Below are positions 1,461 to 18,371 of a DNA stretch of 64,000 bases, piece after piece. The notes beneath the pieces were generated by a model. That model did no database searches, was not told where the DNA came from, and was given only the letters and a program-made list of their open reading frames with translations. This stretch comes from Alphaproteobacteria bacterium (GTDB lineage: Bacteria; Pseudomonadota; Alphaproteobacteria; JAJFFI01). The first letter of the stretch is position 1. Each line of letters opens with the position of its first letter. The DNA lies in assembly GCA_030066595.1 (NCBI GenBank), contig JASJBI010000057.1, positions 40,021 through 104,020 on the forward strand, given 5' to 3'. The translations under genes were made by a program, and so were the position numbers.

Positions 1461-1874
1461 ATGATTGGAGGAGGTGGACCGTTGCCCAGAACTGGAACAT
1501 GCCTGTGCGGGGAAGTGAGCTTCTCAGCCGAGCCGTTGCCGACCATGCAGGCCTGCCATTGCGGCATGTGCCGCAAATGGAGCGGCGGACCGTTCATGTC
1601 GACGCCGTGCAAGGAGGCGGTCTTCGATGGGCCGGTGACGCGCTATGCCTCGTCGGACCACGCCGAACGCGGCTTCTGCGCGACCTGCGGCACGCATCTC
1701 TTCTATTTTGCGAAGGCCGCAGGAATCCATGCGATCCCGATCGGCCTGTTCGATGACCAGACGGACTTGCCCTTCCGGGCCGAGTTCTATGTGGACCGCA
1801 AGCCGGACTACTACGCGTTCAGCAACGAGACCAAGCAGCTGACGGCCGCCGAGTACGAGGCGAAGTTCCGCTGA
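1461..1874 (+). CDS. GFA-family (CENP-V/glutathione-dependent formaldehyde-activating enzyme-like) zinc-binding protein
   Basis: Cys motifs CLCGEV...CHCGMCRKWSG...CATCGTHL are typical of the GFA fold. The ATG at 1461 (MIGGGG) is the most plausible start. Confidence 0.7.
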   Translation: MIGGGGPLPRTGTCLCGEVSFSAEPLPTMQACHCGMCRKWSGGPFMSTPCKEAVFDGPVTRYASSDHAERGFCATCGTHLFYFAKAAGIHAIPIGLFDDQTDLPFRAEFYVDRKPDYYAFSNETKQLTAAEYEAKFR

Positions 1875-2058
1875 CGCGACACGCTTCGCGATTTGATCGA
1901 CAAAGCGGCGGGCGGATCGTGGATCAAGTCCCGCCGCCCCTCGAATCGCCGCGCGGCCCGCGGCGCGGGTCTCGAGTCGCCGCCGGCAGGCAGGGCAGGC
2001 ACGTACTCGCGATTTCGAATATTGTATACAAAATCCAAAACGATGGTAGCATGCCGGC

Positions 2059-2742
2059 ATGGCCTTGCCCGAACGTGCGCTGCGCATTCCCGAGAGCATC
2101 GCGAGCGAGCTTGCCCGCGTGCTCGAGGACGCGATCATCTATGGCGAGATCGAGCCGGGCACGCGGCTGCGTGAGGAAGAGGTATCGGTGCGCTATGGCG
2201 TGAGCCGGTCGCCGGTGCGCGAAGCCTTCCGGCTGCTCGAGCGGGACGGCCTCGCGATACGGGCGACGCGCCGGGGCTTCAAGGTCTCGGAGGTGGGCCG
2301 TCGCGACCTGCGAGAGGTCTACTCCTGCCGCGTCGCGCTCGAAGGGCTCGCCGCCGAGCAGGCCGCGGCCGCGCGGACCCAGGCCCAGGTGGCGGCCATG
2401 CGGCGCCTGCTCGCCGACATGGGCGCCGCGAAGGCGGCCCGGGACGCCCGGGCCTACTTTGCGCACAATGTCGCGCTCACCGGGTTGATCTACGAGGCGA
2501 CCGGCAACGAGACCTTGCAGCGACTGCTCTCGCGCATCGAAAAGCAGGCGCGGCGCTATCGCTTTATGGCTTATGTCACGCGGCCCGCGCTGATCGCGCA
2601 GTCGGAGACGGGCAACCGCCGCATCATCGACGCGATCGCCGACGGCAAGCCAGAGACCGCGCGAGACATCACCGAAGGGCTGATCCGGACGTCCTGGAAG
2701 GCGATCGACGCCCACCTCGAGAGTGCGGGCTTCGATGAGTGA
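2059..2742 (+). CDS. GntR-family transcriptional regulator with an FCD ligand-binding domain
   Basis: N-terminal winged HTH (EEEVSVRYGVSRSPVREAFRLLERDGL) followed by a helical FCD-like C-terminal domain. Its stop overlaps the next gene's start within ATGAGTGA. Confidence 0.85.
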   Translation: MALPERALRIPESIASELARVLEDAIIYGEIEPGTRLREEEVSVRYGVSRSPVREAFRLLERDGLAIRATRRGFKVSEVGRRDLREVYSCRVALEGLAAEQAAAARTQAQVAAMRRLLADMGAAKAARDARAYFAHNVALTGLIYEATGNETLQRLLSRIEKQARRYRFMAYVTRPALIAQSETGNRRIIDAIADGKPETARDITEGLIRTSWKAIDAHLESAGFDE

Positions 2743-4720
2743 CTTCATCACCAGCGCCGTGATCCGGGAATCGCTCGCCTCCGTCGTGCGCGAGATGCGC
2801 CGCTCGATGGTGCGCTCCTCGTACAGCTCGATCATCTATGAGGGCTATGACTTCTCCTGCGCCATCATGGACGCCCGCGGCCAGCTGGTCGCCCAATCCG
2901 GCGAGGATCATCCGTTTCACGTGATCCCCGTCGCGTGGAGCGTGGGCAAACTGCTGGAGACCGGGGTCGACGTGCGGGACGAGGACGTCTTCCTGCACAA
3001 CGACCCCTACTCGGGCGGCACGCATCTCAACGACGTGGCGGTGATCTGGCCGGTCTTCGAGGACGGGCGCCTCTTGATGTTCGTCGTCATCCGCTCGCAT
3101 TGGGCGGACATCGGCGGCATGACTCCGGGCAGCCTCAGCGGCAAGGCGCGAGAGATCCTGCAAGAGGGGCTGAGGCTCAACCACGTGCGCGTGCCCAAGA
3201 CCGGGCGGTCCGAGGTCATGGACGTGATCTTCGCCAACGTCCGAATCAATGACGAGGCGCTCGCCGACTTCCGAGCCGTTCTCGGCACCTGCCGGGTGGC
3301 GGAGGCCCGCCTGAAGGAGCTGCTTCGGAAATACAGCACCGGCACTGTGCTCGCCGCAATTGACGAGCTCTTGCGGGCCTCGGAAGAGCGCATGCGGTCC
3401 GCGATCCGTGATCTGCCGGATGGCCGCTATGTCGGGACGGGATACCTGGACGGCAACGAACCGGCGCTCTTTCCTTTGCGTGTCCAGGTTGCCTTGACCC
3501 TCGAGGGCGACGGTTTGCGCGCCGACTTTGACGGCACCTCGGCGCAGGTGCCGGCGCCCTTGAACGCCGGTCCGGCGATCGCCGCGACCAGCGTGCTCAC
3601 CATCGTGAAGAGCTTTCTCGACCCGGCCGGGGTGATCAACTCCGGCACCATCCGCGCGATCGAGGTCGAGGCACCGGCAGGTACCATACTGCACGCCACC
3701 TATCCCGCTCCCTGCGGCGGCCTGAACGAGGTTCGCTTCGCCGCCGACGGCGCGGTCATGGCAGCACTGGCGCAGATCATTCCCGAGCGCATCACTGGCG
3801 ATGTGCGCGGCACCTCGAACCACACCTACATCGGGGGCGTCGACCCGGCGCGGGGCAAGCCCTTCATCTTCTACGAATATCCGTCCGGCGGCACCGGCGC
3901 CTTCGACGGCTCGGACGGCAATCACGCCGTGCGCGCCTTCAACGAAGGCGAGAACGTCTCGATCCAGTCCGCAGAGGTGGTGGAGACGATCTATCCGCTT
4001 CGCATTCGTCGGAACGAGCTGCGCCCGGACAGCGGCGGCCCCGGCCGGTTCCGCGGCGGCTGCGGCCTGCTGCGCGAGGTCGAGGTGCTGGCCGACGGTG
4101 CCCGCCTCTCGGTGCTCTCCGACCGCAATCTCATCCCCCCCTTCGGCGTCAACGGCGGTCGGTCCGGCGCCCCAAACCGATACGAGATCCAGCGCAACGG
4201 CGAAACCATCGAGCCGTCCGCGTTTCCGGGCAAAGTCGCGGATTTCCCGCTCCAGCGGGGCGATGTCGTGCGCATGATGAGCTCCGGTGGGGGCGGTTAT
4301 GGCGCTGCGCCGGCGCGGGATCCCGAGCGGTTGACGCGGGATTTCGAAGACGGGGTGGTGACCGAGGCGGGGCTGGAACCCTACGGTGCCGAGCTCACGA
4401 ACGGGACGCTCGCGATGAACGGCTGGCCGACCGACGAGACCTCCGCGCGCGTAGTTCTGAGCAACGAGAAGGCGCCGGTTCACGCGTGCCGCGTGTCCGC
4501 CGCTCTGGCCCAGAGGCTCGCACTCAGCGAAGGCCAGATGGTCGAGTTGGTGCGGGCGCACGGGCCGGCGATGCGGTTCTGGGTGGCCGACACCGAACCC
4601 GGCGTCGAGCCCAGCATCGCGCTCTCCAGCATCTGGCGTGGCGCCCTGGAGGAGGAAATCTGCGTCGTGCGCGCGACGCCGACACGCATGCCCAACATGG
4701 GAGCACAGCAAGATGAGTGA
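2735..4720 (+). CDS. Hydantoinase B/oxoprolinase-family protein (HyuB-like, ATP-dependent amidohydrolase subunit)
   Basis: N-terminus MSDFITSAVIRESLASVVREMRRSMVRSSYSSIIYEGYDFSCAIMDARGQL matches the hydantoinase_B signature. It carries about 80 extra C-terminal residues and is translationally coupled to its neighbours. Confidence 0.85.
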   Translation: MSDFITSAVIRESLASVVREMRRSMVRSSYSSIIYEGYDFSCAIMDARGQLVAQSGEDHPFHVIPVAWSVGKLLETGVDVRDEDVFLHNDPYSGGTHLNDVAVIWPVFEDGRLLMFVVIRSHWADIGGMTPGSLSGKAREILQEGLRLNHVRVPKTGRSEVMDVIFANVRINDEALADFRAVLGTCRVAEARLKELLRKYSTGTVLAAIDELLRASEERMRSAIRDLPDGRYVGTGYLDGNEPALFPLRVQVALTLEGDGLRADFDGTSAQVPAPLNAGPAIAATSVLTIVKSFLDPAGVINSGTIRAIEVEAPAGTILHATYPAPCGGLNEVRFAADGAVMAALAQIIPERITGDVRGTSNHTYIGGVDPARGKPFIFYEYPSGGTGAFDGSDGNHAVRAFNEGENVSIQSAEVVETIYPLRIRRNELRPDSGGPGRFRGGCGLLREVEVLADGARLSVLSDRNLIPPFGVNGGRSGAPNRYEIQRNGETIEPSAFPGKVADFPLQRGDVVRMMSSGGGGYGAAPARDPERLTRDFEDGVVTEAGLEPYGAELTNGTLAMNGWPTDETSARVVLSNEKAPVHACRVSAALAQRLALSEGQMVELVRAHGPAMRFWVADTEPGVEPSIALSSIWRGALEEEICVVRATPTRMPNMGAQQDE

Positions 4721-6089
4721 GATCACTCTGCCGACCGCCGCTCAGGAGCCTGCGGTCAACCGGCGTTCTGTTCCTTTGGGACGGAATGGGCGAACCAGCG
4801 AACGCGAAGCCGGCCAACTTGCCCTGGCCTATGAGTTGCTGCCCGGCGGCGCGCTTGGCGGCAACGCTTTGCCCGACGACCTGCGCTTCGTGTTCCATCA
4901 CGGCAACGGCGCACGGTTCCGGGACACGACCGGCAACGAATACATCGACTACTGCCTGGGATCCGGCCCGCTGGTGCTCGGGCACGCCCATCCGGCGGTC
5001 GTCCAGGCGGTCATCGACCAGGCCCGCCGCGGCACGCATTTCTTTGCCTATCTCAACGAGCCGGCGGTTCGTCTCGCCAAGGTCATCGCCGACCACCTGC
5101 CCTGCGCCGAGAAGCTGCGCTTCACCACGTCCGGCTCGGACTCGACCTTTCACGCCATCCGCCTGGCGCGGGCCTTCACCGGCCGGGACAAGATTCTCAA
5201 GTTCGAAGGCGCCTATCACGGCCATCACGACTACGCGCAGCTGTCCACCTCACCAAAGCGCGTCGCCGAGTTCCCGGCGCCGCAGCCGGACACCAGCGGC
5301 ATTCCGGCCGATGTGCGCGAGCTCATGCTGGTCGCGCCCTACAACGATCTGGAGACGACGCGCGGCATCGTGGAAGCGCATGCGGGCGAGATCGCGGCGA
5401 TCATCGTCGAGCCGGTGCAGCGCATCATCGCGCCCGTCGACGGTTTTCTCGAGGGGCTTCGCGCGCTGACCGAGGCGCACGGCATCGTGCTCATCTTCGA
5501 CGAGGTGGTCACCGGCTTCCGCTTCGGCATGGGCGGGGCCCAGGCGCATTTCGGCATCACCCCCGACCTGTGCACCTTGGGCAAGATCATCGGCGGCGGC
5601 ACGCCGCTCGGCGCGGTCGCCGGCAGGGCGGATATTCTCGACCAGTGCGACCCACGTCAGAAGGGCGACCCCGCCTATGTCTACCAGAACGGTACTTTGA
5701 ACGGGAACCCGCTGGGCGCGGCGGCGGCGCTCGCGACCCTGGCCGAGCTGGAGAAGCCGGGCGCGTTCGACCGCCTGTTCGAGATCGCGGCCGCGGTGCG
5801 CAGCGGCATCGGCGAGGTCTTGGCCGCCAACCGGATGCCGGCCATCTGCTTCGGCACCGGACCGATGTGGCACATCCTGTTTACCGACCGCGAGCCCCGG
5901 AACCATCGCGATGTCATGGCGGCCGACGGCAAGGCGCTCATACGCTTCGACTACGAGCTGATCCGCAACGGGATCTTCGTACTGCCGGGCAACCGCCGCT
6001 TCGTCTCGCTGGCCCACAGCCGAGGCGACATCGAGGACACCTTGGCGGCGGTCGACCGGGCCTGCCGCCGGTTCACGCTGGCCGCTTGA
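4713..6089 (+). CDS. Class-III (omega) aminotransferase, glutamate-1-semialdehyde aminomutase-like
   Basis: GSGPLVLGHAHPAVVQAV...TSGSDSTFHAIRLARAFTGRDKILKFEGAYHGHHD and the lysine region FDEVVTGFR...GKIIGGG are class-III aminotransferase motifs. Its start overlaps the hyuB stop. Confidence 0.85.
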   Translation: MSEITLPTAAQEPAVNRRSVPLGRNGRTSEREAGQLALAYELLPGGALGGNALPDDLRFVFHHGNGARFRDTTGNEYIDYCLGSGPLVLGHAHPAVVQAVIDQARRGTHFFAYLNEPAVRLAKVIADHLPCAEKLRFTTSGSDSTFHAIRLARAFTGRDKILKFEGAYHGHHDYAQLSTSPKRVAEFPAPQPDTSGIPADVRELMLVAPYNDLETTRGIVEAHAGEIAAIIVEPVQRIIAPVDGFLEGLRALTEAHGIVLIFDEVVTGFRFGMGGAQAHFGITPDLCTLGKIIGGGTPLGAVAGRADILDQCDPRQKGDPAYVYQNGTLNGNPLGAAAALATLAELEKPGAFDRLFEIAAAVRSGIGEVLAANRMPAICFGTGPMWHILFTDREPRNHRDVMAADGKALIRFDYELIRNGIFVLPGNRRFVSLAHSRGDIEDTLAAVDRACRRFTLAA

Positions 6090-6090
6090 T

Positions 6091-8128
6091 CATGCAGCCA
6101 AACGGGCAAATTATCGTCGGGATCGACGTCGGCGGGACCTTCACCGACCTGACGCTCTACGACCCGCAATCCGGCGAGACGCGTGCCGTGAAGTCCCCGT
6201 CGGACTCCGCGAGGCCCGACCAAGGCGTGCTCGCGGCGCTCGACAAGTCTGGGCTCGATCTGGGGGACTGCGGGCTCATGGTGCATGGCACCACGGTCGG
6301 CACCAATGCGTTGCTCGAACGCAAGGGCGCGCGCACCGCAATGATCACCACCGCGGGCTTCCGGGACGTGATCGAGCTCGGCCGCACCACCCGGATGACG
6401 CCGAACACGCTTTACAACCCGTATTTCCGCAAGACGCCGCCGCTGGTCCGGCGAAAAGACCGCCACACGATTGCCGAGCGGATCGGCGCCGACGGCGCGG
6501 TGGATCGGCCGCTCGACGAGGCGGCGCTGGCGGCGCTGGCCAAGCGCCTATCCGCCGGCGGTACGGAGTCGGTCGCCGTCTGCCTGCTCAACAGCTATGC
6601 CAACGATGCACACGAGCAGGCGGTTGCCGATCACCTGCGCGCCCATATTCCCTTCGTCTGTCGTTCAGTCGACGTCCTGAACGAGATCCGGGAGTACGAG
6701 CGGTTCTCGACCTGCGTCATCAACGCCTATCTGATGCCGCTCATGGGGCGCTATGCCGGCCGCCTTGTCGACACGCTGCGGGAGCGCGGCTACCAGGGCT
6801 CCTTTCACACCATGGCCTCGAATGGCGGCCTGCTGAGCGACGCGATGGTGCGCGCCGTTCCCGTGCGCACGATCCTCTCTGGCCCGGCCGCCGGCGTCGC
6901 GGCCGCCGCCTATCTGATGCAGGGCCTGGGCCGTGGCGACTATGTGACCTACGACATGGGCGGAACGTCGACCGATGTGGCACTGGTCGTGGACGGGACT
7001 TGGCCGGTCAAACGGGAGACCGTGCTCGAGGGTATCATGATCAAGATCCCGCAGCTCGACATCCAGACCATCGGCGCCGGCGGCGGCAGCATCGCCTCCC
7101 TCGACGCCGGCGACAGCCTGCTTGTCGGGCCAGAAAGTGCCGGTGCGCACCCGGGCCCGGCCTGCTACGGCCATGGCGGCGAGGAGCCGACGGTCACGGA
7201 CGCGAACGTGGTTCTGGGCCGGCTCGGCGCGGGTCAGGAGCTCGGCGCCAGCCTGCGGATCGACGCAGACGCGGCCCGCGCTGCCGTGGCCAGGCTGGCC
7301 GCGCGGCGCAAGATCACGGTCGAGACCATGGCCGCCGGCATCGTGCGCGTCGCCGTCGCCAAGATGGCCGCCGCGATCTACGAGATCTCGGTCGCGCGCG
7401 GCCACGATCCGCGCGAGCTCGCCCTGCTGCCCTTTGGCGGCGCCGGGCCGCTGCACGCTTGTGCGATCGCCGACGAGCTGGGCATCGGCAGCGTCGTGGT
7501 TCCGCCGGTCCCGGGCGCGTTTTCGGCCTATGGCGGGCTCTGCTCGTCCCTGTTCAAGGAGAAGATGGCGACGCTCTTGGCGCCGCTCGACGCGGCCGCG
7601 ATCGGCCGCATGGCGGAGCTGGCGGTGGGTTCGGCCGCGGCGCTGACTGAAGAGTTCAAGCGCGAGGGGCTGTCCACGGAGCGGCTGCGCTTCCGGCGCG
7701 AGATCGACGCCCGCTATCTGGGGCAGGCGCATGAGGTCACGGTCGAGGTCCCCGACGACGTCGATCCCGGCGCGGCGCGGGCGCTGTTCGAAACCGAGTT
7801 CGAACGTCAGTTCGGCCGCCGCGACAGCGACAAGCCGGTCGAGATCGTAAACCTGCGGGTGATCGGCGAGATCCTGCCCGAGCCGCCCGCACTCAGACCG
7901 ATGGCCACGCGCGAGACCGCGGTGGCGCCCGTAGCCATGCGGCCGGTCTACCACGAGACCGGATTCGCCGACTGTCCCGTCTACGACCGGGAGACCTTGG
8001 CGGGCGGGGCCACGATCGCCGGGCCCGCCATCGTTCAGGAGATGAGCTCGACGGTGTATCTGCCGCCCGACTGGACGCTCGCGGTCGGGCGTTTCGGCGA
8101 GCTCGAGCTGACACGGACACAGACTTGA
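6091..8128 (+). CDS. Hydantoinase A/oxoprolinase-family protein (HyuA-like)
   Basis: MQPNGQIIVGIDVGGTFTDLTLYD is the characteristic N-terminus of hydantoinase_A/oxoprolinase. The track's 5570 start is a spurious upstream extension across the aminotransferase. Confidence 0.85.
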
Positions 8129-8145
8129 CCGAAGGGAGCTGAGAC

Positions 8146-9096
8146 ATGCCTGACACGCCACTGCGGGAGCCGGACGCGTTTGCGGACACCCGCGCCTTTC
8201 TCGAGAAGCACGGCTATCCCCGGGGCGATCTCTGGGATCGCCCCATATCGGACGCGCGCTTTCCGGACGGCGCCCACTTCCGCATCGAGGTACCCACCGT
8301 GAACAGCGCGGATGCGGTGCGCACACTGGTGCGCATCGTGCGCGAGGAAAGCGGGGTCACCATCAACCGCATCGACCAGACCGCCGGCATCATGCGGTTC
8401 TCGGACAAGGAGCATGAGGCCTACCTGGATGTGGGACGCGAGCACGACATCGAGATCTTTTTCGCGCTCGGGCCGCGCGGCATCTACGACATCGGCGCGC
8501 AGAAGATGGTCAACTCGGTCTGGGGGCACGCCTCGGCGCTGCGCACGCGCGGCATGGAGCAGATCGTCTACGCCATTGAGGACGTCAAGCGCATCGTCGG
8601 CATGGGCGGACGCGGCCTCCTGATCTCCGACGAGGGTATGCTGATCCTGGCCAAGAAGCTGCGCGACGACGGCGTGATCCCGTCGGACGTGAAGCTGATG
8701 GCCTCGGCCCATATGGGCCACAACAACCCGGTCACCTACAAGATGCTCGAGGATCAGGGCGCGGACACCATCGCGTCCCAGCGGGATCTGGATTTCAGCA
8801 TCATGGCGGCGTTGCGCGCCGCCGTGCAGATCCCGCTGCACGTGCACATCGACAATCCCCAGGCGACGGGCGGTTTCATCCGCGTGTACGACGCCCCGGA
8901 GATGGTGCGGATCTGCGCCCCGGTCTACCTCAAGACCGGCTCGTCGGTGCTCGAGCGGCACGGCATGGTGATCACCGAGGATCTGGCGGTCCAGATGGGC
9001 CGGCAGGTCGCCGTATCGATGGAGACGCTCAGACGCTATCTGCCCGACGCGATCCAAACCGAGGGGCGGGCGGAGGATTTGGCGATTCCGGTGTGA
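8146..9096 (+). CDS. Conserved hypothetical protein, family not recognised
   Basis: 316-aa ORF with protein-like composition in the same operon orientation, between hyuA and dctP. No diagnostic motif recognised by eye. Confidence 0.5.
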   Translation: MPDTPLREPDAFADTRAFLEKHGYPRGDLWDRPISDARFPDGAHFRIEVPTVNSADAVRTLVRIVREESGVTINRIDQTAGIMRFSDKEHEAYLDVGREHDIEIFFALGPRGIYDIGAQKMVNSVWGHASALRTRGMEQIVYAIEDVKRIVGMGGRGLLISDEGMLILAKKLRDDGVIPSDVKLMASAHMGHNNPVTYKMLEDQGADTIASQRDLDFSIMAALRAAVQIPLHVHIDNPQATGGFIRVYDAPEMVRICAPVYLKTGSSVLERHGMVITEDLAVQMGRQVAVSMETLRRYLPDAIQTEGRAEDLAIPV

Positions 9097-9186
9097 TCGA
9101 GAATGCCGGACTTGGGAACGCCGCGGGAGACGCTGCAAGAAGCCGACCTGCGGCTCATAACAACGAAGCAGAGGAGGGAACAGACA

Positions 9187-10167
9187 ATGCTGTCCAGACT
9201 ATCAACAACGGCGCTCACGGCACTGCTGGGGTGGTTCCTGATCGGAACCGCGCCCGCGTTTGCCGCCGATTACACCGTAAAGATCGCCTATGAAACATCC
9301 GAGACGCACCTCAAGGCGCGCACGGCGGCGCTGTTCGCGGACGAACTCAAGAAGCGGAGCGGCGGCAAGATCGACGTCGAGATCTTCCCCAACGCCTCGC
9401 TGCTGCCGTCGAAGCAAGAGGTGAATGCGGCCATCCGCGGACAGGTTCAGGTGATCCTGCCGTTCCTGAGCTACTACGAATCCATCGCGCCGAGCGTCAA
9501 GGTGTTCACCATGCCCATGGTTTTCGCCGACTACGGCCATCTCGCCAAGGCGTGGCAGGGCAAGGCGGGCGATCAGATCCGCAAGGAGCTCGACAAGGTC
9601 GGCCTCCACGCGCTCGCCTTCTGGTACGAGACGCCGACCCAGCTGTTCACGACGGGAAAGCAGGTCACCAATCTGGATCAGCTCAAGGGACTGAAGATCC
9701 GGACCTATCCCTCGGCATTGCTGGAATCGACGCTGACCAATCTCGGCGCCGTGGCCACGGTGATCCCCGGCAGCGAGGTCTATCTGGCGCTCCAGAACAA
9801 CACGGTCGATGGGGCCATCACGACGCCGAGCTTCGCCGCTTCGCTCAAGCTCACCGAAGTGCTCAAGACCATGACCCAGATCGGTCTCGCCTATGGCGGC
9901 TACATCCTGGCGATCAACAAGGACTTCTACGACAAGCTGCCGGCCGACCAGAAAAAGGCGGTGGACGAATCGGCCGCGGTCGCCTCTGAGTGGAACGCCA
10001 AGGAGATCGACGCCGAGGTCGAGAAGTCCAATGCGGCGATGCGCGACGCCGGGGTCAAGGTGTTCGACCTCGACAAGGGCGACCGCAAGCGCTGGGTCGC
10101 GGCGGTGCAGCCGGTGTTCAAGGAGCAGGACGACTCGCTCAAGGCGCTGATTGACGCCGTGAAGTAA
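9187..10167 (+). CDS. dctP: TRAP transporter substrate-binding protein (DctP family)
   Basis: Signal peptide (MLSRLSTTALTALLGWFLIGTAPAFAADY) and DctP-like body. A good SD (GGAGGGA) lies upstream of the ATG at 9187. Confidence 0.85.
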   Translation: MLSRLSTTALTALLGWFLIGTAPAFAADYTVKIAYETSETHLKARTAALFADELKKRSGGKIDVEIFPNASLLPSKQEVNAAIRGQVQVILPFLSYYESIAPSVKVFTMPMVFADYGHLAKAWQGKAGDQIRKELDKVGLHALAFWYETPTQLFTTGKQVTNLDQLKGLKIRTYPSALLESTLTNLGAVATVIPGSEVYLALQNNTVDGAITTPSFAASLKLTEVLKTMTQIGLAYGGYILAINKDFYDKLPADQKKAVDESAAVASEWNAKEIDAEVEKSNAAMRDAGVKVFDLDKGDRKRWVAAVQPVFKEQDDSLKALIDAVK

Positions 10168-10193
10168 TCGCGCCGCGCCGGTAGTATCGGCGC

Positions 10194-10727
10194 ATGCCGA
10201 GCGGCGCGCGCATTCGGAGGATCATCCGCCGTCTCGACGGGGTGTTGAGCCGCGTCGAGACGGCGCTGGTCTCCGGGTGCCTGGGATTCGCGGCCTTGAC
10301 CGCGTTCGGCTTGATCGCCGGACGCAACCTGCTCAACCGATCCTACAACGCCCTCGAGGAGATCTCGGTCTACCTCATCATCTGGATGGTGTTCGCGGGC
10401 ATGATGCTGGCCGACCGGGCGCGTCAGCACATCTCGATCGACATCGTCCACTACATCATCCCCGCGCACTGGCAGGGCCCGCTACAGAGAATCGCGGACG
10501 GGTTTCAAGCTCTGGTCTGCCTCGGGCTTGCCTGGTTCAGCCTGGACGCGGTGCGGTTCTCCTGGCGGATCGGCGAGCGCTCGGTCTCGACCCTCGAGCA
10601 GCCCATCTGGGTGCTGATGTCCATCATGCCGCTCGCCTTTCTGGTGGTCGGGTTGCGGTCGCTCGCACGCAGCCTCGGCGAGACCCGCGCGCGAGAGGTT
10701 CGCGACGAGGGAGTGTCGTCTGTTTGA
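10194..10727 (+). CDS. dctQ: TRAP transporter small permease (DctQ family)
   Basis: 177-aa protein with four predicted TM helices, lying between dctP and dctM. Confidence 0.75.
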   Translation: MPSGARIRRIIRRLDGVLSRVETALVSGCLGFAALTAFGLIAGRNLLNRSYNALEEISVYLIIWMVFAGMMLADRARQHISIDIVHYIIPAHWQGPLQRIADGFQALVCLGLAWFSLDAVRFSWRIGERSVSTLEQPIWVLMSIMPLAFLVVGLRSLARSLGETRAREVRDEGVSSV

Positions 10728-12025
10728 CTGACCAGACCGCCCTCCTGATCGCTCTCGTCGTCCTGGTCCCGGTGCTGCTGTCGGGACTGCCGATCGCCTT
10801 TTCCCTGCTTCTCGTGTCGATCGGCTACTTCCTGCTGAGCGGCTCCGACGCGGCGGTCACCGCCTCGAACATGTTCTGGTTTCTGAACAAGTCGGAGCTG
10901 ATCTCAATCCCCTTCTTCATCCTGGCCGCCGATATCCTGGGGCGGAGCCGCGCGACGGACGACCTCGTGGCCGCCGCCGAGGCCCTGTTCGGCTGGCTGC
11001 GCGGCGGGCTCGCGCTGGTCACCATGGTCTCGACCATCGTGTTCAGCGCGATCAGCGGTTCGAGCGTCGCGACCGCGGTGGCCATCGGCCGGGTGATGAT
11101 CCCGAAGCTGGTCGAGGCCGGCTACAACCGCCGCTTCTCGGTCGGGCTGGTGGCGGCGGGCGGCGGGCTCGGCATCCTGATCCCGCCGAGCGTGCCGCTG
11201 ATCATCTACGCGACCGTCGCCGAGATCTCCGTGGCCGACGTGTTCATGGCGGCGACCGGCCCGGGCCTGCTGATGGGCGCCGTGTTCTGCGTCTTCATCG
11301 TGATCATGGGGAACCGGGCGCGCGACCCGAAGGCCCGCTTGGTGGCGCCGGAACTCAGGCCAGGCGACCGCGCGCGCCTGCTGCTGCGGGCCGGGCCCGT
11401 CATCCTGCTGCCCTTTCTGATTCTGGGCGGCATCTACGGCGGCTATTTCACGCCCGGCCAGGCGGCGGCGGTCTCGGTGATTTATGCCGGGGTCCTGAGC
11501 CAGACCTTCTACCGTCGCCCGGGCATGGAGCCGCTCCCCCGGCTGGTCGCCGAGGCCGGGCGGCTGGCGGCGGTCATCCTGCTGATCATGGCGGCCACCT
11601 CCGTGTTCGGCTACATCATCACCCAGAACCGGATTCCCTTTCACTTCGCGCAGTACATCGACGGGCTCGGGCTCTCGCCCTTCGTGTTCCTGATCTGCGT
11701 GAACGTGCTGCTGCTGCTGCTCGGCTGCCTTCTGGAGATCATCTCGGTGATTCTGATCACGCTGCCGATCTTCCTGCCGATCCTGGCGCAGCTCGACATC
11801 AACCCGGTGCACTTCGCCATCGTCATGATCATCAACATGGAGCTTGCCGTGATCACGCCGCCCATCGGCATGAACCTGTTCGTGATCTCGTCGATCAGCG
11901 ATGTGCCGCTGTTGCGGGTGTTCCAGGGCACGCTGCCGTTCGTGGGACTGATGCTCGCCATGCTGCTGCTCACCACCTACTCAGAGGCGGTGGCGTTGGC
12001 CACGTTGCGGCTCTTCGGCGGGTAG
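10724..12025 (+). CDS. dctM: TRAP transporter large permease (DctM family)
   Basis: LTDQTALLIALVVLVPVLLSGLPIAFSLLL... is a typical DctM N-terminus. The TTG start at 10724 overlaps the dctQ stop; the track's 10277 start is an out-of-context extension. Confidence 0.8.
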   Translation: MTDQTALLIALVVLVPVLLSGLPIAFSLLLVSIGYFLLSGSDAAVTASNMFWFLNKSELISIPFFILAADILGRSRATDDLVAAAEALFGWLRGGLALVTMVSTIVFSAISGSSVATAVAIGRVMIPKLVEAGYNRRFSVGLVAAGGGLGILIPPSVPLIIYATVAEISVADVFMAATGPGLLMGAVFCVFIVIMGNRARDPKARLVAPELRPGDRARLLLRAGPVILLPFLILGGIYGGYFTPGQAAAVSVIYAGVLSQTFYRRPGMEPLPRLVAEAGRLAAVILLIMAATSVFGYIITQNRIPFHFAQYIDGLGLSPFVFLICVNVLLLLLGCLLEIISVILITLPIFLPILAQLDINPVHFAIVMIINMELAVITPPIGMNLFVISSISDVPLLRVFQGTLPFVGLMLAMLLLTTYSEAVALATLRLFGG

Positions 12026-12074
12026 CGCATGATCGGGTTCGGCATTTCGGACAGACACATCGGATCCTGAAGCC

Positions 12075-12542
12075 ATGTCTGACAAGATCGTTCCGCTCCA
12101 TCGTCTGCCGCCGGGCGCGCCCTACTGGGAGGTCGGTGGTCTCGTCGACCGTACCGAGGTCACGTTGGCGCTGCACGGCGACGACCTCGACCCGCCCGAG
12201 ATCACGCGGCGCATCGGCCGCGAGCCGACCCACGCCCACCGCCGCGGCGAGCCGAGCGAGGGCCCCAAAGTCAAGATTCCCTACAAGTCCGGGGCGTGGC
12301 TGCTGACCGTGGATGTGGAAGCCCCGGAGGGGCCGGAAGAAGCCACGGAAGAGCTGCTCGACCTCCTGCCCGACGACCAGGGCCTCTGGCAGGAGCTGTC
12401 TGAGCGGTATGACATGTATTTCTCCTACGGGATCTTCTTCGACGGCGTCAACCGGGGGTTCACGCTTTCCGCCGATCTGCAGCGGCGCCTCGCGACATAC
12501 CACGCCGATCTCAGTTTCGACCTGTACTCGAACCAGTCTTAG
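12075..12542 (+). CDS. Small cytoplasmic protein, DUF4279-like
   Basis: 155 aa. The pattern LALHGDDLDPPEITRRIGREPTHAHRRGEP...GAWLL...YDMYFSYGIFFDG...LSFDLY resembles my memory of DUF4279; that assignment is unverified. It is convergent with the zinc-ribbon gene. Confidence 0.5.
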   Translation: MSDKIVPLHRLPPGAPYWEVGGLVDRTEVTLALHGDDLDPPEITRRIGREPTHAHRRGEPSEGPKVKIPYKSGAWLLTVDVEAPEGPEEATEELLDLLPDDQGLWQELSERYDMYFSYGIFFDGVNRGFTLSADLQRRLATYHADLSFDLYSNQS

Positions 12543-12581
12543 CGGGATGACCGTGCTGCGCCCAGTCGGTCGGATCGTGCT

Positions 12582-13961
12582 TCAGATGCGGTGGCCGCAC
12601 TGGGTACAGAACTTCTTGCCGCGGCCGAGCTTGGCGCCGCATTTGACGCAGTGCTTGGCGGCAGCCGAAGCCGGTCGGCGCGACTTGGTGGTCGAACCGC
12701 GCTTGCCGGGCCGCCGCTGACTGACTGCGGCTTTCGGCGCTTTCCGCGTGCGGCTGGCTGTCTTGGATTTTGCTGTTGCCGCCGTGCCCGCCGCGGCGCG
12801 CTTGGCCCTCTTTGGGGCCGCGCGAGGCGGCGCATCCGGTTTCGAACGCCGTGGGCGCGCGGCGGCTGCCTTCGGTGCCGCGGCCTTCGCCCGTGACCGA
12901 GCTTTGCCGGCCGGGCTCGCGGGGGAGACTTTTGGCGCCGATGCCGCCCTGGCCCGGCCGGACGCGGACCCAGCGAGCGAGTCGTCGACGATGGCAAAGG
13001 CGGTGTCAGCGGCCACGTCCGACAGCACGAGGCTCGCGGCACGGCCCGGCGGCCCGTCCCAGACACCGAGCAAGAGCCCGCCAGGCGCTCTGATCAGCAT
13101 GAGCCAGTCGACGGTCACGTCCCGGCCATCGGTCGCCATGACAATCAAGGAGCTGACCACCTGCGCTTCACTGAGCGCGCTGGCGACGCCCAGCCCAACG
13201 GTGGTCACCCGGCCCTCGGCATCGACCAGGCCCGAGGCGCCCAACTCCCGTACGCCGGCCTCGAGGACCTCGAGGCTTCGATCGCCGGCGATCGCTCCGG
13301 CGCTCACCAACGCCATCAAGGTGACGACGGCGCGCGTATCCGGCCGGTCGAGACCAAGTTCCGTCATGTGCGTCAGGTCCGTCAGATCGATGGGTGCGGC
13401 GGCAACGCTCATGAGGTCCGGGACGCGCGCCAGCCGGCTCTGCAGCTGGTCCTCGCTCAGCCGATCGGCGATTGCGGCGAGGGCCGTCAGAGCCTTGGTG
13501 CTGAGGCGCACCGAAAACCCGCTGTCCTGCGCCGGACCCGCGGTCAGGCCGCAGAGGTCGTCCAGGATGGCCATGAGCTGGTCGCGCGCCGTCAACAGCG
13601 CCAGGTCCCAGTCGCCCGCCTCGTCAATGGACAGCATGGCATAGGGTCCGTCCGCGCCATCGCACGCAAAGCGCGCCTCGATCGACACCGGACTGCCCGG
13701 CCGATAGCTGCTCACGTTGATTGACTGCGTCGGCGCGGCCAGCACGCGGAACAGGCATTCAGCCTCCGCCACAAGCTTGGCTTTGCCACGGCGCACATGG
13801 TTCGGCAGCGACGTCGCAGGCTCGGGCAGGCCCGCATAAAGCTGCGCGTCGGGCGGCGCTGCCCCCAGCACGGCGAAGCAGCCGGCCACCTCCGCCGGGC
13901 TCAGGATGAACCGGGCCGGCGCCAGGTCGCTAGGGCTGCTGCTGGTCGGTTTGGAACTCAT
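12582..13961 (-). CDS. Uncharacterised protein with a Lys/Ala/Pro-rich basic tail and a C-terminal double zinc ribbon
   Basis: The C-terminus has AKP-rich repeats (KAAAPKAAAARPRRSKPDAPPRAAPKRAKRAAAG...) followed by CVKCGAKLGRGKKFCTQCGHRI. The most plausible start (MSSKPTSS, 13961) overlaps the upstream gene's stop by 32 nt; the track's 14075 start is probably an extension. Confidence 0.55.
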   Translation of the reverse strand: MSSKPTSSSPSDLAPARFILSPAEVAGCFAVLGAAPPDAQLYAGLPEPATSLPNHVRRGKAKLVAEAECLFRVLAAPTQSINVSSYRPGSPVSIEARFACDGADGPYAMLSIDEAGDWDLALLTARDQLMAILDDLCGLTAGPAQDSGFSVRLSTKALTALAAIADRLSEDQLQSRLARVPDLMSVAAAPIDLTDLTHMTELGLDRPDTRAVVTLMALVSAGAIAGDRSLEVLEAGVRELGASGLVDAEGRVTTVGLGVASALSEAQVVSSLIVMATDGRDVTVDWLMLIRAPGGLLLGVWDGPPGRAASLVLSDVAADTAFAIVDDSLAGSASGRARAASAPKVSPASPAGKARSRAKAAAPKAAAARPRRSKPDAPPRAAPKRAKRAAAGTAATAKSKTASRTRKAPKAAVSQRRPGKRGSTTKSRRPASAAAKHCVKCGAKLGRGKKFCTQCGHRI

Positions 13962-16900
13962 CCCGCCATCCCTTGACCACGAGCTTGGGTGTCGACGCCG
14001 TGGCGCCCGGCGCAGCGGCACCCGGCACGGGGGCGCCGCCGCCGCGCAACTTCTGGAGACCTTCGACATAGGCACTCATCTGCCCGGCCAGCTGCTCCGT
14101 GCCGGTGCCCATGCGCGCCAGCACGGCTTCGGCCTGCGCCGGGGTCAGGTGCCCCGTCTGCACTTGTTTCAGCACATTGACGCCCTCGGACAGGGAGCGC
14201 GGGATCGTGGCACCCGGGGCGTTGCCCAGCGCCTGCATCGCGCGGGTGCGCGTGACCACCATGTTGCCGTACTGCTTGACGAGCTGGCGCTGCGCCTCCT
14301 CCTCGAGGGCAACGGCGGCTTCGAGCAGCTTTTGCTTTTGACCGGGGGTGCTCGCGGACGCCGCCGCGCGCTTCAACTCGTCGGCTTCCTTCATCCAGTG
14401 ATTGACCTTGAATTCGACCGTCTTGGCGGTGACGGCGGGGTCAATGAAGTCGCGGCCGCGATACGCGTCCTTGGTTGCGGTATCGAGGTCGCCCTGGCCA
14501 GTGCCATAGGCTTCCGGGTGCAGCCGATCGGTGGTCGCCTGGTCGAGCCGCTTGGCGAGCTTGTCGGCGTCCAAGATATCGTTCGGGTCGGCCAGATGCT
14601 CGGACGGGCTCAGATGGGTGTCCTTGAAATCGACGCTCGACTGCTGGGCCGCCATCTCCGCTCGTGGCTGCCGGCTCGGGGTTGGCGCGTCATCGACCCC
14701 CTTGGCTGCCTTGTAGAGCTCTTCGTTGTAGATCCGCGCCGTCGTGGTCGACGGGACGTCCTCCATGATCACGCGTCCGGTGTGGGGATCGACGGTCCGG
14801 ACGCGCATGGTCAGGTCGCGGTCGAAGCTCGCCTTGTTGCCCTTGGGCTCGCGAGCGGCCTGGGCCGCGTCCGCGGGCGATTGCGACGGGCCGGTGCCCG
14901 TCGTATCTGCGGCGCTGCCCCGGCTTGCCTCGGCCCGGCTGCCGGTCACGCCGCCGTCGGGCTCCCAATGTGACGCATGACCCCAGTTCTCGCGCGGCGG
15001 GGCGCGTGGGTCGATCTTCATGCCCGCTTCGCCCGGCATGTTGGTGATGGTCACGACCTGAACGTCTTCCGGTCGCACGCCATACTCCTCGGCGAGCCGG
15101 GCCTTGGTCCCGCGATCGGCCTGCTCGTATATCGCATCCATCTCGCCGTTGAACTCTTTGATGACGGCGTTCTCGCCGTCCGTCTTGGGCAGCCTGTTCA
15201 ACTCGTTCATGGCATGCTTGTCGGCCTGAACGCGGAGCACGTCTTCGCGCATCTGGCGTTCCAGCGCGGCGATCTGGTCGGGTGTCGCGGTGCCGCTCGC
15301 CCTGGCGGCCTCCAGCTCCTCGATCGAACGGCTCAGCGCCTCGACCTTCTCGCGCCCAGCGGCCCGGCCGCTCTCGAAGTGGTCATCCATCTCGCGCGTG
15401 ACCCCTGAGTCCCGCGTTTCGGCGGCAATGCGCTCGGTCTCCGCCGACAGCTGCGCCTCGTTGAACCTGGTCTCGGCGAGATCGGGCGTCAGGCGGTGCG
15501 ATCCACCATCGGGCGTCAGGCGGCCCGATCCCCCGAGGCCGATCCCATCGAGCGCCGACTCGATCGCTTCCGTGCCGGTCTTGTTGAGGGCGTTGACGCG
15601 TTCCGAAACGGCCGTCGTCATATCCGAGATGCCACGCTTGAGATTGGCGTGGGTCTCGGCGTCCAACACCCGTTTGGCGACCGAGTCCAGCGCCGCGCCA
15701 GGCTCTACGCCCGCAACCTCGGCAATATCCAGTCCGGCCGCCGCATCGGCAAACATGCTGACGCCGAGTTCCGTCCAGGAAACCTTCTCGCCGCGGCGCA
15801 TACGGACGAGCGCATCGACCGTGTTGACCGGCAGGTTCTCCCTGACGAACTCGCCCGTGACGGTGTTCAGCACGTCGGTCGATGTGAAGTCCTTGCCCTG
15901 ATCGACGGCCCGGTGCACGCTCGTCTGGACCGCTTGGAGCGTGGTGCCGCTTTGAAACACAGCCTCGCTCCATCCTTTCGTTGCGACGCCTAGAATTGCT
16001 CGCTTCCAGAAGCTGTTGGACGCGTCTTTGAAGCCATGGTGTGCGGCGTCCTGCAGAATGTCGACCGTCGAGGTGCGTCCGAGCTTGTGATCCGGCATCG
16101 CCAGGTCCCGGGACAGGCGGCTTCGCAGCGCTCCTTTGAGCCTGTTCACATAGTCGATATTGACGGAGCCATCGTCATTGTAGATCTGGCCGTGATGGCT
16201 GCGCGCCAGGATCTCGTCGAGCCCCATGTGCTCGGCCGCCTTGCGGATGCGGTCGATATCGTCGATGGCCGCGCGCCGCTCCGCTTCCCCGCGGCGGATC
16301 TCGGCCTCTTTCCGGCGCTCGGCCTCGATCTGTTCCTTCGCGCGTTTCTTGAGCTCTTTGCGCCGGTCGTCGGACTCGCGTTCGAACGCGGTGGCGTCGC
16401 GCCGGCGCTGCTCCACCTCGCGCTCGAGCGCGGCGACCGCCCGTTCGGCTTGCGCACGGGAAAGCCAACGCCAGTTGCCCTTCTTGTCGGGCGCCCAGAC
16501 CTGGCCCTTGGCATTGACCTGGAGGGGCTGGCCGTCCCGCGGATCGATCAGCGGCGGCGGGCGCGCAACCGGCGGTCGGGGCGGGGCGGGTGGCTGGTGC
16601 GTCGGGCGTCCGCCGATGGCGTCGAGAATATCCTGCGTCGTGACATCGACCCCCGCCTGGACGGCGTTGGCGATCGCCGTGGCTACGGCCTGGGCGACGC
16701 TGACGGCGATCCCCGCCGCCACCAGGACCGAGGCGATGACGGCTGCCGCCGCCGCCGCCTCGTCCGAGGACAGCTCGATCTGGCCACCTTGGAACTGTCC
16801 GCCAAGGACGCCGAGGATGTTCCGGATCCAGAGCCAGATGCCTCCGCCTGGCCGCGGGAGATCCTTGCAAAGCTGATCAGAGAACTTCCGGTGATACCCT

Positions 16901-17175
16901 AGGAACTCGTCAAAGCAAAAGCAGTGAACGGCCCACCACCGGCAATCTCGGATGCGGTTCCCCCGGCGCCGTAAGGGCCGCTGGGCAAGAGTCGTGATCT
17001 CGTCAGTGTGCTGCGATCCCGGGAACAACCGCAGGGGTAGATCGACGTCATGGCCGATGGACGCCGGAAGCGGTGCACTTGATTGTTCGGCTTCGGCTCC
17101 CGTTGCGGCCTGCACGCCCTGCCCAAGTCCGCACAGCAGGACGCCGATGGCGAGGTATCGCAGCAGCCTTGTCAT
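13930..17175 (-). CDS. Large (about 1080 aa) uncharacterised envelope protein with signal peptide, Cys-containing N-domain, hydrophobic segment, Pro-rich linker, coiled coil and a long acidic region
   Basis: Start at 17175 (MTRLLRYLAIGVLLCGLGQGVQA, SD GGGGA upstream), not the track's 17598. It then has a Cys-rich segment (RDCRWWAVHCFCFDEF...LCKD), an Ala/Val-rich hydrophobic stretch, PPAPPRPPVARPPPL, a charged coiled coil (ERRKEAEIRRGEAERR) and an acidic remainder. No enzymatic motif recognised. An uninterrupted ORF of this length with protein-like composition is unlikely to be spurious. Confidence 0.6.
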   Translation of the reverse strand: MTRLLRYLAIGVLLCGLGQGVQAATGAEAEQSSAPLPASIGHDVDLPLRLFPGSQHTDEITTLAQRPLRRRGNRIRDCRWWAVHCFCFDEFLGYHRKFSDQLCKDLPRPGGGIWLWIRNILGVLGGQFQGGQIELSSDEAAAAAAVIASVLVAAGIAVSVAQAVATAIANAVQAGVDVTTQDILDAIGGRPTHQPPAPPRPPVARPPPLIDPRDGQPLQVNAKGQVWAPDKKGNWRWLSRAQAERAVAALEREVEQRRRDATAFERESDDRRKELKKRAKEQIEAERRKEAEIRRGEAERRAAIDDIDRIRKAAEHMGLDEILARSHHGQIYNDDGSVNIDYVNRLKGALRSRLSRDLAMPDHKLGRTSTVDILQDAAHHGFKDASNSFWKRAILGVATKGWSEAVFQSGTTLQAVQTSVHRAVDQGKDFTSTDVLNTVTGEFVRENLPVNTVDALVRMRRGEKVSWTELGVSMFADAAAGLDIAEVAGVEPGAALDSVAKRVLDAETHANLKRGISDMTTAVSERVNALNKTGTEAIESALDGIGLGGSGRLTPDGGSHRLTPDLAETRFNEAQLSAETERIAAETRDSGVTREMDDHFESGRAAGREKVEALSRSIEELEAARASGTATPDQIAALERQMREDVLRVQADKHAMNELNRLPKTDGENAVIKEFNGEMDAIYEQADRGTKARLAEEYGVRPEDVQVVTITNMPGEAGMKIDPRAPPRENWGHASHWEPDGGVTGSRAEASRGSAADTTGTGPSQSPADAAQAAREPKGNKASFDRDLTMRVRTVDPHTGRVIMEDVPSTTTARIYNEELYKAAKGVDDAPTPSRQPRAEMAAQQSSVDFKDTHLSPSEHLADPNDILDADKLAKRLDQATTDRLHPEAYGTGQGDLDTATKDAYRGRDFIDPAVTAKTVEFKVNHWMKEADELKRAAASASTPGQKQKLLEAAVALEEEAQRQLVKQYGNMVVTRTRAMQALGNAPGATIPRSLSEGVNVLKQVQTGHLTPAQAEAVLARMGTGTEQLAGQMSAYVEGLQKLRGGGAPVPGAAAPGATASTPKLVVKGWRDEFQTDQQQP

Positions 17176-17210
17176 GGCCGCGCCATTATCCCCATTACAC
17201 GATCGCAGTC

Positions 17211-17831: not shown

Positions 17832-17949
17832 CTACGCCGCCCTTCCGCGACGGCGCCGGCCACCACCGCTGCCAGCGGTGGTCTCACCGCGCGAAGGCAA
17901 CGTCCGTCTCCTCCTGCCGGACGGATATGCTAGTCTTTCCGCTTAGGCG

Positions 17950-18324: not shown

Positions 18325-18371
18325 CACAGGAGGGGAGGCGTCGCTCCGACAGTGGTCTCGGGGCGACCTCT

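Follow-up and report, generated by a model that had tools for sequence, protein, structure and literature searches.

We propose that eight co-directional genes on the plus strand of contig JASJBI010000057.1 (positions 2059-12025 of the 64-kb stretch analyzed here, hereafter the window) form a single catabolic operon, under the control of GntR, for a small nitrogen compound that bears a carboxylate and that would be imported, opened in an ATP-dependent reaction, transaminated, and finally converted by an uncharacterized enzyme; we hold this proposal with moderate confidence. The genes encode, in order, a GntR regulator with an FCD domain, HyuB, a class-III aminotransferase (AT), HyuA, a 316-residue protein that we call X316, and the DctP, DctQ, and DctM subunits of a TRAP transporter. 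An earlier sequence-only reading of the window had given this gene order correctly, and had suggested that a ring-opening enzyme, an aminotransferase, and an importer together degrade a lactam or other cyclic amide. That lactamase-plus-aminotransferase logic stands as the best reading, because HyuAB, in the sequence comparisons made here, does not cluster tightly with 5-oxoprolinase, acetone carboxylase, or any other characterized enzyme and because the AT is co-conserved with HyuAB. The more specific resemblance drawn at the time, to a caprolactamase with its omega-aminotransferase, does not extend to orthology with caprolactamase or to the aminotransferase type of the caprolactam cluster.

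What is conserved in this arrangement, and what is exchangeable? The window was analyzed by open reading frame (ORF) listing, reading of the gene junctions, and Pfam and NCBIfam scans, and it was compared with about 30 distinct loci (labeled by L-numbers) that came from X316-seeded collection scans, from look-ups of the genomic context of eight X316-homolog and four HyuB-homolog seeds, and from plasmid searches. In every informative locus obtained from the X316-homolog seeds (L010-L018 and L021-L038, from Proteobacteria and Actinobacteria), the AT gene lies immediately upstream of the X316 gene, and in most of them a gntR gene lies upstream of the AT gene. The GntR-AT-X316 unit is present in at least 15 loci, and since it recurs in many loci without HyuAB, we regard HyuAB as an optional front end. 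The conserved core is the operator, GntR, AT, and X316; HyuAB, with or without the TRAP transporter, is a modular addition. This reverses the roles assigned before, when X316 had been taken for a possible accessory enzyme: in the X316-seeded scans X316 is the invariant neighbor of the AT clade, and it is HyuAB that can be dispensed with.

Where HyuAB is present, it keeps company with the AT. The AT gene lies between hyuB and hyuA in seven loci, counting the window (among them L014, L018, L039, L041, and L042, from Alpha-, Beta-, and Gammaproteobacteria), and it lies beside them in three more (L012/L028, L033, and L040); likewise, all four HyuB-seeded contexts contain an AT ortholog. The gene order of L018, from Thiotrichales, is the same as in the window. 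Other loci vary the theme: Amidase-HyuB-AT-HyuA-X316 in L039, GntR-HyuB-AT-HyuA-MFS in Azorhizobium oxalatiphilum (L041), GntR-HyuB-AT-HyuA-DctPQM in Burkholderiales (L042), and GntR-AT-X316-HyuB-HyuA in L012/L028. In L033, HyuB is encoded in a divergent operon, and in Bosea sp. (L040) HyuB-HyuA are divergent from AT-tautomerase-GntR-aldehyde dehydrogenase (3219-7429, minus strand), with an AT ortholog of 63% identity. The arrangement is far from chance, for either the whole order or hyuB-AT-hyuA recurs in metagenome-assembled genomes (MAGs) and cultured strains of three proteobacterial classes.

In a neighbor-joining tree the ATs of these loci form one clade, apart from plasmid paralogs of 44-51% identity, and within that clade HyuAB-positive and HyuAB-negative loci are interleaved. 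The plasmid collection held no X316 or AT ortholog, only 28-51% paralogs in other contexts. Fragments of HyuA, 120-134 residues long, adjoin X316 in L011 (9479-9841, after X316; Hydant_A_N E 7e-6) and in L037 (576-980, between AT and X316; 41% identity to the HyuA C-terminus), and these apparent remnants indicate that HyuAB has been lost. An auxiliary role of HyuAB would fit such a pattern of optional presence and decay. Specifically, the amino acid handled by the AT, or an activated form of it, might cyclize spontaneously to a dead-end lactam that HyuAB reopens with ATP, as 5-oxoprolinase does with 5-oxoproline; many loci without HyuAB import through amino-acid-type ABC systems, and the insertion of the AT gene between hyuB and hyuA suggests joint, stoichiometric expression. 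We nevertheless find a salvage function unlikely, since the TRAP transporter is co-inherited specifically with HyuAB (in the window, L014, L018, and L042), which suggests a distinct imported substrate, and since spontaneous cyclization is an assumption that the explanation itself brings in.

Other modules take the place of HyuAB elsewhere. An amidase, an aldehyde dehydrogenase, and an OYE/FadH-family flavoprotein accompany the core in L021 and six other loci; a DMGDH/SoxA-like flavoenzyme (DAO, FAO_M, and GCV_T domains) directly follows X316 in L013, L019, L030, and L032; and Acidimicrobiia have the order AT-X316-aldehyde dehydrogenase together with an amidase and an RpiR regulator. These modules were also searched for clues to the substrate. 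The linked aldehyde dehydrogenases are generic BADH-like enzymes that fall below every equivalog cut-off, so the aldehyde could not be named from them, and the amidase subtypes were uninformative. A separate observation concerns the Rhodospirillales MAG locus L021, where a bacterial microcompartment locus (14603-20948) lies downstream of GntR-AT-X316 and is similar to those for amino-alcohol utilization; besides shell genes of the BMC, EutN, and CsoS1D-like kinds, it encodes an APH-type kinase, a DMGDH-like enzyme, and an aldehyde dehydrogenase.

To which branch of their family do HyuA and HyuB belong? Both are members of the hydantoinase/oxoprolinase family, with every Pfam domain far above its gathering score, and HyuA would be the ATP-binding partner of HyuB. 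The top PDB match of both subunits is 7hk5, a fused 1288-residue protein deposited as N-methylhydantoinase (395 bits for HyuA, 236 for HyuB), followed closely by the caprolactamase 6yra (389 bits for HyuA on 6yra_A, 207 for HyuB on the beta subunit 6yra_B). Acetophenone carboxylase scores lower (287 bits for HyuA on the gamma subunit, 97 for HyuB), as does acetone carboxylase (219 bits for HyuA on the beta subunit, 60 for HyuB). Because the scores to 7hk5 and 6yra exceed those to the carboxylases, we place HyuAB, on these sequence comparisons, in the hydrolase branch of the family, as the apparent ortholog of no characterized enzyme. A caprolactamase proper is not indicated: on the NCBIfam equivalog models NF050156 (CapA) and NF050157 (CapB), each with a cut-off of 1000 bits, HyuA reaches 508 and HyuB 274, which leaves the analogy with caprolactamase a functional one only.

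The same scores bear on two further explanations. Enzymes of the acetone and acetophenone carboxylase type belong to this superfamily and yield β-keto acids, and the branch to which the AT belongs includes β-transaminases; HyuAB could on this basis be an ATP-dependent carboxylase that makes a β-keto acid for the AT to turn into a β-amino acid. We judge this extremely improbable, given that the carboxylase scores lie so far below the hydrolase scores, that the ApcC and ApcD models are missed by a wide margin (301 and 100 bits against cut-offs of 1500), that no additional small (gamma or epsilon) carboxylase subunit gene is present in 2059-12025, and that the surroundings (a GntR repressor, importers, and in Bosea a decarboxylase-like neighbor) are those of a catabolic pathway. 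Alternatively, HyuAB could be an ordinary 5-oxoprolinase or N-methylhydantoinase with AT and X316 as unrelated neighbors. The deposited name of 7hk5 would suit the second of these activities, and several database homologs are called "5-oxoprolinase" or "N-methylhydantoinase B", but those names are automatic annotations, and the similarity to the solved enzymes is moderate and about equal for two different specificities. Moreover, the placement of the AT gene between the subunit genes, with overlapping codons and in an arrangement kept across three proteobacterial classes, and a C-terminal domain of HyuB specific to this subfamily make it very unlikely that so plain an identity is right.

That C-terminal domain is an extension of about 100 residues (residues ~555-661, encoded at 4397-4717) that is absent from the caprolactamase beta subunit and makes HyuB ~80-100 residues longer. 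It is kept in more than 100 homologs of 640-680 residues, with the motif C.VS..LA..LGL..GQMVEL....GP.LRFWV, and gives only faint matches of the double-psi-barrel type (Molydop_binding and CDC48_N, E 0.06-0.2). Long-form HyuB proteins of at least 58% identity are numerous, and one occurs in Falsiroseomonas oryzae. The extension could be a docking domain, perhaps for the AT encoded between the subunit genes.

The AT is a class-III, fold type I PLP aminotransferase with the Aminotran_3 domain and the Schiff-base lysine: the GK of LGKIIGGG aligns with the lysine of glutamate-1-semialdehyde aminomutase (GSAM) and is invariant in 26 related sequences. Its closest solved relatives are GSAMs (E about 1e-86), and GSAM models are also its best NCBIfam matches, although below cut-off (PRK00062, 379.7 against 398; TIGR00713, 365.7 against 527.3). 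Alignment of the AT with HemL extends over the full length of the AT, with an identity of roughly 40% as estimated by eye, and the motifs LGK.IGGG and YQ.GTL.GNP are common to both. However, in an alignment with three GSAM structures the GSAM motif PGGVNSPVRAF, which we take to hold the arginine that binds the substrate carboxylate, is replaced by PGGALGGNALP, the lid or gating loop has diverged (STSPKRVAEFPAPQPDTSGIP versus KAGSGVATLGLPDSPGVP), and the gene context is catabolic. A true HemL was therefore rejected, on the sub-cut-off model scores and the missing substrate motif. With the PLP-lysine motif kept, the substrate motif replaced, and the lid loop diverged, the AT appears to be a GSAM-like enzyme with a different substrate rather than an omega-transaminase of the GABA or 6-aminohexanoate type. 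Its other solved relatives are D-phenylglycine aminotransferase, β-transaminases, β-phenylalanine aminotransferase, and the aminotransferase domain of mycosubtilin synthase. Outside the clade, AT paralogs of 45-47% identity lie in clusters of a kind typical of betaine-type N-demethylation, on a Roseovarius plasmid (L045) and a Mesorhizobium plasmid (L047); both clusters encode an RpiR regulator, a Rieske oxygenase alpha subunit, an 825-residue FAD oxidoreductase, and an aldehyde dehydrogenase, and L047 also encodes ETF alpha/beta and a GlxA-family regulator. It may be common for the breakdown of demethylated amines to end with a GSAM-like transaminase.

What kind of protein is X316? It had been described before as belonging to no recognizable family, and we found no significant Pfam, NCBIfam, or PDB match to it, either as a single sequence or as a 48-sequence profile. 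Its homologs are annotated "peptidase" or "U32 family peptidase". This identity was considered and set aside: the U32 model PF01136 covers 89 residues of X316 at E 0.035 and 13.8 bits, below the gathering score of 22.4, and a precomputed PF01136 match is present in only 3 of 120 X316 homologs among the matches listed. U32 proteins carry a Cys-rich signature, and X316 has a single Cys, with no Cys column invariant or nearly so in its family. A confident AlphaFold2 model built with 48 homologs is a (βα)8 barrel (pLDDT 88.7, pTM 0.88). The homolog alignment has 53 invariant columns, and invariant polar residues stand in or just after the predicted strands: R46/E48, R75/T79, E103, D162/E163, S187/H189, R213/D214, H234/D236/N237, and K263/S267. 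In the model these residues have the signature of an enzyme active site rich in residues of the metal-ligand type and in carboxylate-binding residues. The top Foldseek neighbors are class II fructose-bisphosphate, tagatose-bisphosphate, and YdjI aldolases (E 2e-7, 10-16% identity), and CutC and U32 are among the weak neighbors as well; X316 differs from the U32, CutC, and class II aldolase families in having no significant sequence relationship to them and a TM-score of only 0.41-0.48. In a hidden Markov model search of 1.84 billion representative sequences the X316 family comprised 1,127 clusters at E ≤ 1e-3 and 665 at E ≤ 1e-10. In other words, a family of about 1,100 clusters at 50% identity, spread over bacteria and archaea and associated with small-molecule catabolism, is annotated as peptidases.

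All examined genomic contexts of X316 and its homologs are ones of small-molecule catabolism, and several of them hint at chemistry. Homologs from anaerobes and archaea (~50% identity; Synergistota, Acetomicrobium, and archaea; L001-L009 and L049) have no AT neighbor and adjoin genes for class I fumarase alpha and beta, malic enzyme, and TRAP or TAXI-TRAP transporters. L001-L009 additionally have a pair of nitroreductase-like proteins near the X316 homolog, and the Acetomicrobium locus additionally has a molybdenum hydroxylase set (a molybdoenzyme of the xanthine dehydrogenase family) and a CN_hydrolase. In Thermomicrobium a homolog of 39% identity comes after a sugar-binding protein, an ABC ATPase, an enolase-superfamily protein, and an MBL hydrolase, a slot that by analogy would fit a 2-keto-3-deoxy-acid aldolase. 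These contexts agree with enolate-forming lyase or decarboxylase chemistry on di-acids and prove none of it. In the Burkholderiales locus L042 the stretch after DctPQM (10344-11952) holds, in the position of X316, a gene for a 341-residue protein and then two small UGSC-family genes. The protein has no relative in Pfam, NCBIfam, or the PDB, and as a functional replacement of X316 it was rejected, since it is unrelated to X316 (hhalign probability 0.2%).

X316 might instead act before the AT, as a ring-opening or deacylating hydrolase for an ectoine-like cyclic solute, and HyuAB would then serve a second, lactam-type substrate. The observations behind this idea come mainly from L023 (11187-12056), L024 (11412-12266), and L029 (3068-3937), where AT-X316 is directly followed by genes for ABC binding proteins that score above the cut-off of the NCBIfam EhuB ectoine/hydroxyectoine equivalog (240-253 bits against 190.9). 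In the minimal GntR-AT-X316-ABC block, AT and X316 are the only catabolic enzyme genes, so something must generate the primary amine, and X316 has invariant His and Asp residues from which a hydrolytic metal site could be built. Set against this, no amidohydrolase-superfamily enzyme is among the listed top fold matches of X316, no classical ectoine catabolic gene is found near AT-X316 in L023, L024, or L029, the anaerobe homologs adjoin enzymes of C4-dicarboxylates, and no named ectoine-binding protein in the PDB list is a close match to the window's DctP. An M24 protein of L039 was also considered as an ectoine hydrolase and rejected (88 bits on the DoeA model, cut-off 613). A hydrolase role for X316 is, in our view, quite improbable.

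We return to the reading that we favor, in which X316 follows the AT. DctPQM would import the compound. HyuA and HyuB, as an ATP-dependent cyclic-amide hydrolase acting on a lactam, imide, or hydantoin, would expose a primary amine, and the AT would move the amino group to an oxo-acid acceptor and leave an aldehyde or oxo-acid. X316, probably a metal-dependent TIM-barrel enzyme, would convert this oxo product, most plausibly through C-C cleavage of the enolate type or decarboxylation to a central metabolite, a step for which we offer only a cautious suggestion. The AT would be the hub of the scheme, and HyuAB, amidases, flavin-dependent N-demethylases or amine dehydrogenases, and EhuB-like ABC uptake would be interchangeable front ends that deliver the same amine. 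The order from amine through AT and oxo-acid to X316 is supported by Bosea, where a tautomerase stands in the place of X316 and an aldehyde dehydrogenase is also encoded, and by the Acidimicrobiia order AT-X316-aldehyde dehydrogenase. In the Bosea locus, which lacks X316, a 130-residue Pro-1 tautomerase-superfamily protein adjoins the AT, and then come GntR and the aldehyde dehydrogenase. The best PDB match of the tautomerase is 7tvk (E 2e-32, about 50% identity), an entry that bears the name malonate semialdehyde decarboxylase, and the tautomerase may be a non-orthologous replacement of X316. All this points to a reactive β-oxo or 2-oxo acid as the oxo product, one processed through enolate chemistry, in agreement with the weak class II aldolase signal in the fold comparison.

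The Bosea tautomerase also opens a more definite possibility, in which β-alanine or a relative is the hub. The AT would then form malonate semialdehyde or another β-oxo acid, X316 would be a non-homologous analog of malonate semialdehyde or oxaloacetate decarboxylase, and HyuAB, the amidases, pyrimidine-reductive enzymes, and N-demethylases would all be sources of β-amino acids. The Acidimicrobiia order speaks for such a pathway, as do the β-transaminases and β-phenylalanine aminotransferase among the non-GSAM relatives of the AT and the fact that in anaerobes X316 neighbors fumarase and malic enzyme, which puts the β-oxo acid oxaloacetate within reach. Similarly, PreA (714 bits), a carbamoylase-family M20 enzyme (688 bits), cytosine deaminase, and a YcdC-like TetR-family regulator are encoded near AT-X316 in L013 and L019, but the pyrimidine genes of L013 may belong to a neighboring operon. 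β-Alanine, however, has no natural five- or six-membered lactam, which would leave the role of HyuAB unexplained; the activity ascribed to the 7tvk-like tautomerase rests on a deposited name; among the linked dehydrogenases no malonate- or methylmalonate-semialdehyde dehydrogenase model scores above cut-off; and the EhuB-like transporters point elsewhere. We therefore rate a β-amino acid pathway as doubtful, though a serious candidate.

Several observations weigh against the scheme with X316 downstream of the AT, or against parts of it. Neither a sigma-70 consensus promoter nor an intrinsic terminator was found within 1700-12700. Three HyuB-AT-HyuA loci have no X316. Conversely, the homologs from anaerobes and archaea stand without an AT, so the chemistry of X316 need not depend on a transaminase product. 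The data allow X316 to act either before or after the AT, and the substrate leads conflict, with β-alanine-like amines indicated by Bosea, L013, and L019 and ectoine-like solutes by the EhuB-type proteins of L023, L024, and L029. Tentatively, and with less confidence than doubt, we go one step further and propose that AT and X316 are an unrecognized two-enzyme catabolic module under a dedicated GntR/TGTATACA regulon. X316 would found a new family of metal-dependent TIM-barrel lyases or decarboxylases, widely mis-annotated as U32, that act on the oxo-acid of a transaminase (for example, malonate semialdehyde, or in anaerobes oxaloacetate-like acids) as a non-homologous analog of the tautomerase-type malonate semialdehyde decarboxylase, and HyuB-AT-HyuA would represent an ATP-dependent lactamase of a new specificity class, which might work together with the AT.

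The regulator belongs to the FadR (FCD) subfamily of the GntR family, with an N-terminal winged-helix GntR domain and a C-terminal FCD domain, and orthologs of 45-57% identity precede the AT in most related loci. Upstream of its gene, in an AT-rich patch, lies the palindrome TTGTATACAA, whose core TGTATACA occurs once in the window, where 0.03 occurrences are expected by chance. The core [C/T]TGTATACA[A/G/C] is likewise found just upstream of the orthologous gntR in L011, L012, L018, L021, L024, L030, L033, L036, and L042, so that, counting the window, ten loci share this predicted operator whatever accessory genes they carry. The palindrome fits what we take to be the operator type of the FadR subfamily, T.GT-N-AC.A. 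GntR is probably an autoregulated repressor of the operon; it would bind the palindrome before its own gene and be released by a pathway metabolite. In L031 (~330-380) the palindrome is replaced by a tandem array, TGGATAC TGGATAC TGGATAC TGGATA, before gntR.

The transporter is of the DctPQM TRAP type, with the P, Q, and M subunits encoded together; DctP scores 186.7 on TIGR00787 (cut-off 175) and DctM 356.6 on TIGR00786 (cut-off 268). A TRAP system implies a carboxylate substrate, and the LKIR motif of DctP presumably supplies the carboxylate-binding arginine. The nearest solved structures to DctP are DctP-subunit TRAP binding proteins, at only about 130 bits.

The features of the operon are listed in the table. 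All eight products are identical to the consecutive NCBI proteins MDJ0951098-MDJ0951105 of an Alphaproteobacteria MAG, as found by exact-sequence look-up (GntR is MDJ0951098.1, DctQ MDJ0951104.1, and DctM MDJ0951105.1), which independently confirms the starts and stops. For DctP, the ATG that follows the ribosome-binding site GAGGAGGG is preferred over a start at 9103. The first four genes had been described as translationally coupled through overlaps. This is borne out at two of the three junctions, GntR/HyuB (2735-2742) and HyuB/AT (4713-4720), which share the 8-nt overlap ATGAGTGA; the AT/HyuA junction, TGAtcATG, has a 2-nt gap and no overlap. A 17-nt spacer with a GGGAG ribosome-binding site separates HyuA from X316, and DctQ and DctM share the overlap TTGA. 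The genes on either side are unrelated: upstream lies a GFA-family gene (1428-1874), downstream a DUF4279 gene (12075-12542). No aldehyde dehydrogenase gene is present in 2059-12025. The GC content is 62-72% across the first 20 kb of the window, and no Rfam family was found in its 64 kb. Just past the operon, the minus strand holds two long ORFs of 497 (12582-14075) and 1222 residues (13930-17598), whose sole Pfam match is a zinc-ribbon at the end of the shorter one.

Table. Genes of the operon and the predicted operator, in window coordinates.
Feature	Position	Strand	Length	Domain match or note
Predicted GntR operator, palindrome TTGTATACAA	2022-2031			Core TGTATACA at 2023-2030; 28 nt upstream of the gntR ATG, in an AT-rich patch
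GntR+FCD regulator	2059-2742	+	227 aa	Pfam GntR E 3e-16, FCD E 2e-23
HyuB	2735-4720	+	661 aa	Pfam Hydantoinase_B E 6e-154, residues 3-524
Class-III aminotransferase (AT)	4713-6089	+	458 aa	Aminotran_3 E 1e-60
HyuA	6092-8128	+	678 aa	Pfam Hydant_A_N, Hydantoinase_A, Hydant_A_C
X316	8146-9096	+	316 aa	No Pfam or NCBIfam match
DctP, TRAP solute-binding protein	9187-10167	+	326 aa, signal peptide	Pfam DctP E 2e-69
DctQ, TRAP small membrane subunit	10194-10727	+	177 aa	Pfam DctQ E 1e-20
DctM, TRAP large membrane subunit	10724-12025 (TTG start)	+	433 aa	Pfam DctM E 3e-101

Finally, we consider the operon in the light of known systems. The hydantoinase/oxoprolinase family has few ATP-dependent lactamases, and there is demand for such enzymes in the mild hydrolysis of stable lactams and in nylon-monomer chemistry. 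The operon defines a distinct and widespread subfamily in which HyuB with its C-terminal extension is paired with a GSAM-like AT, as in four of four HyuB-seeded contexts, and because cultured carriers exist (Azorhizobium oxalatiphilum and Bosea), the subfamily is directly testable. For X316, the partner enzyme, the regulator, and the predicted operator make discovery of the function of the family tractable. Identifying the substrate would close a gap in our picture of how soil and aquatic Proteobacteria break down non-proteinogenic amines, be they β-amino acids, compatible solutes, or demethylated betaines. A literature search found no publication that describes the hyuB-AT-hyuA arrangement or the X316 family.

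The closest precedent in logic is the caprolactam pathway of Pseudomonas jessenii, where the caprolactamase CapAB, the class-III 6-aminohexanoate omega-aminotransferase PjAT, and 6-oxohexanoate dehydrogenase turn caprolactam into adipate (PMC6061476, PMC8453981), so that the combination of lactamase, class-III aminotransferase, and dehydrogenase is experimentally established for this compound (PMC6061476). Both systems cluster a two-subunit pair of the ATP-dependent lactamase family with a fold type I class-III aminotransferase. However, HyuA and HyuB stay well below the CapA and CapB cut-offs, and HyuB has an additional C-terminal domain; PjAT is a subgroup-II omega-aminotransferase encoded several ORFs away, whereas the AT of the window is GSAM-like and encoded between the subunit genes; and the window has X316, a TRAP importer, and a GntR regulator in place of an aldehyde dehydrogenase. 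Further relatives are OplBA, the valerolactamase of Pseudomonas putida (PMC6838509), the protein of structure 7hk5, and the predicted HyuAB pairs beside opine-lactam genes on Ti plasmids (PMC6733357). They belong to the same family and, like HyuAB, are presumed to use ATP to open a stable cyclic amide with a five- to seven-membered ring, and the Ti-plasmid systems also share the uptake of carboxylated lactams by dedicated transporters; unlike the window, none has an AT between the subunit genes or an X316-type gene, and their similarity is moderate. The operon thus resembles the known lactam systems in outline and belongs to no characterized specificity group among them.

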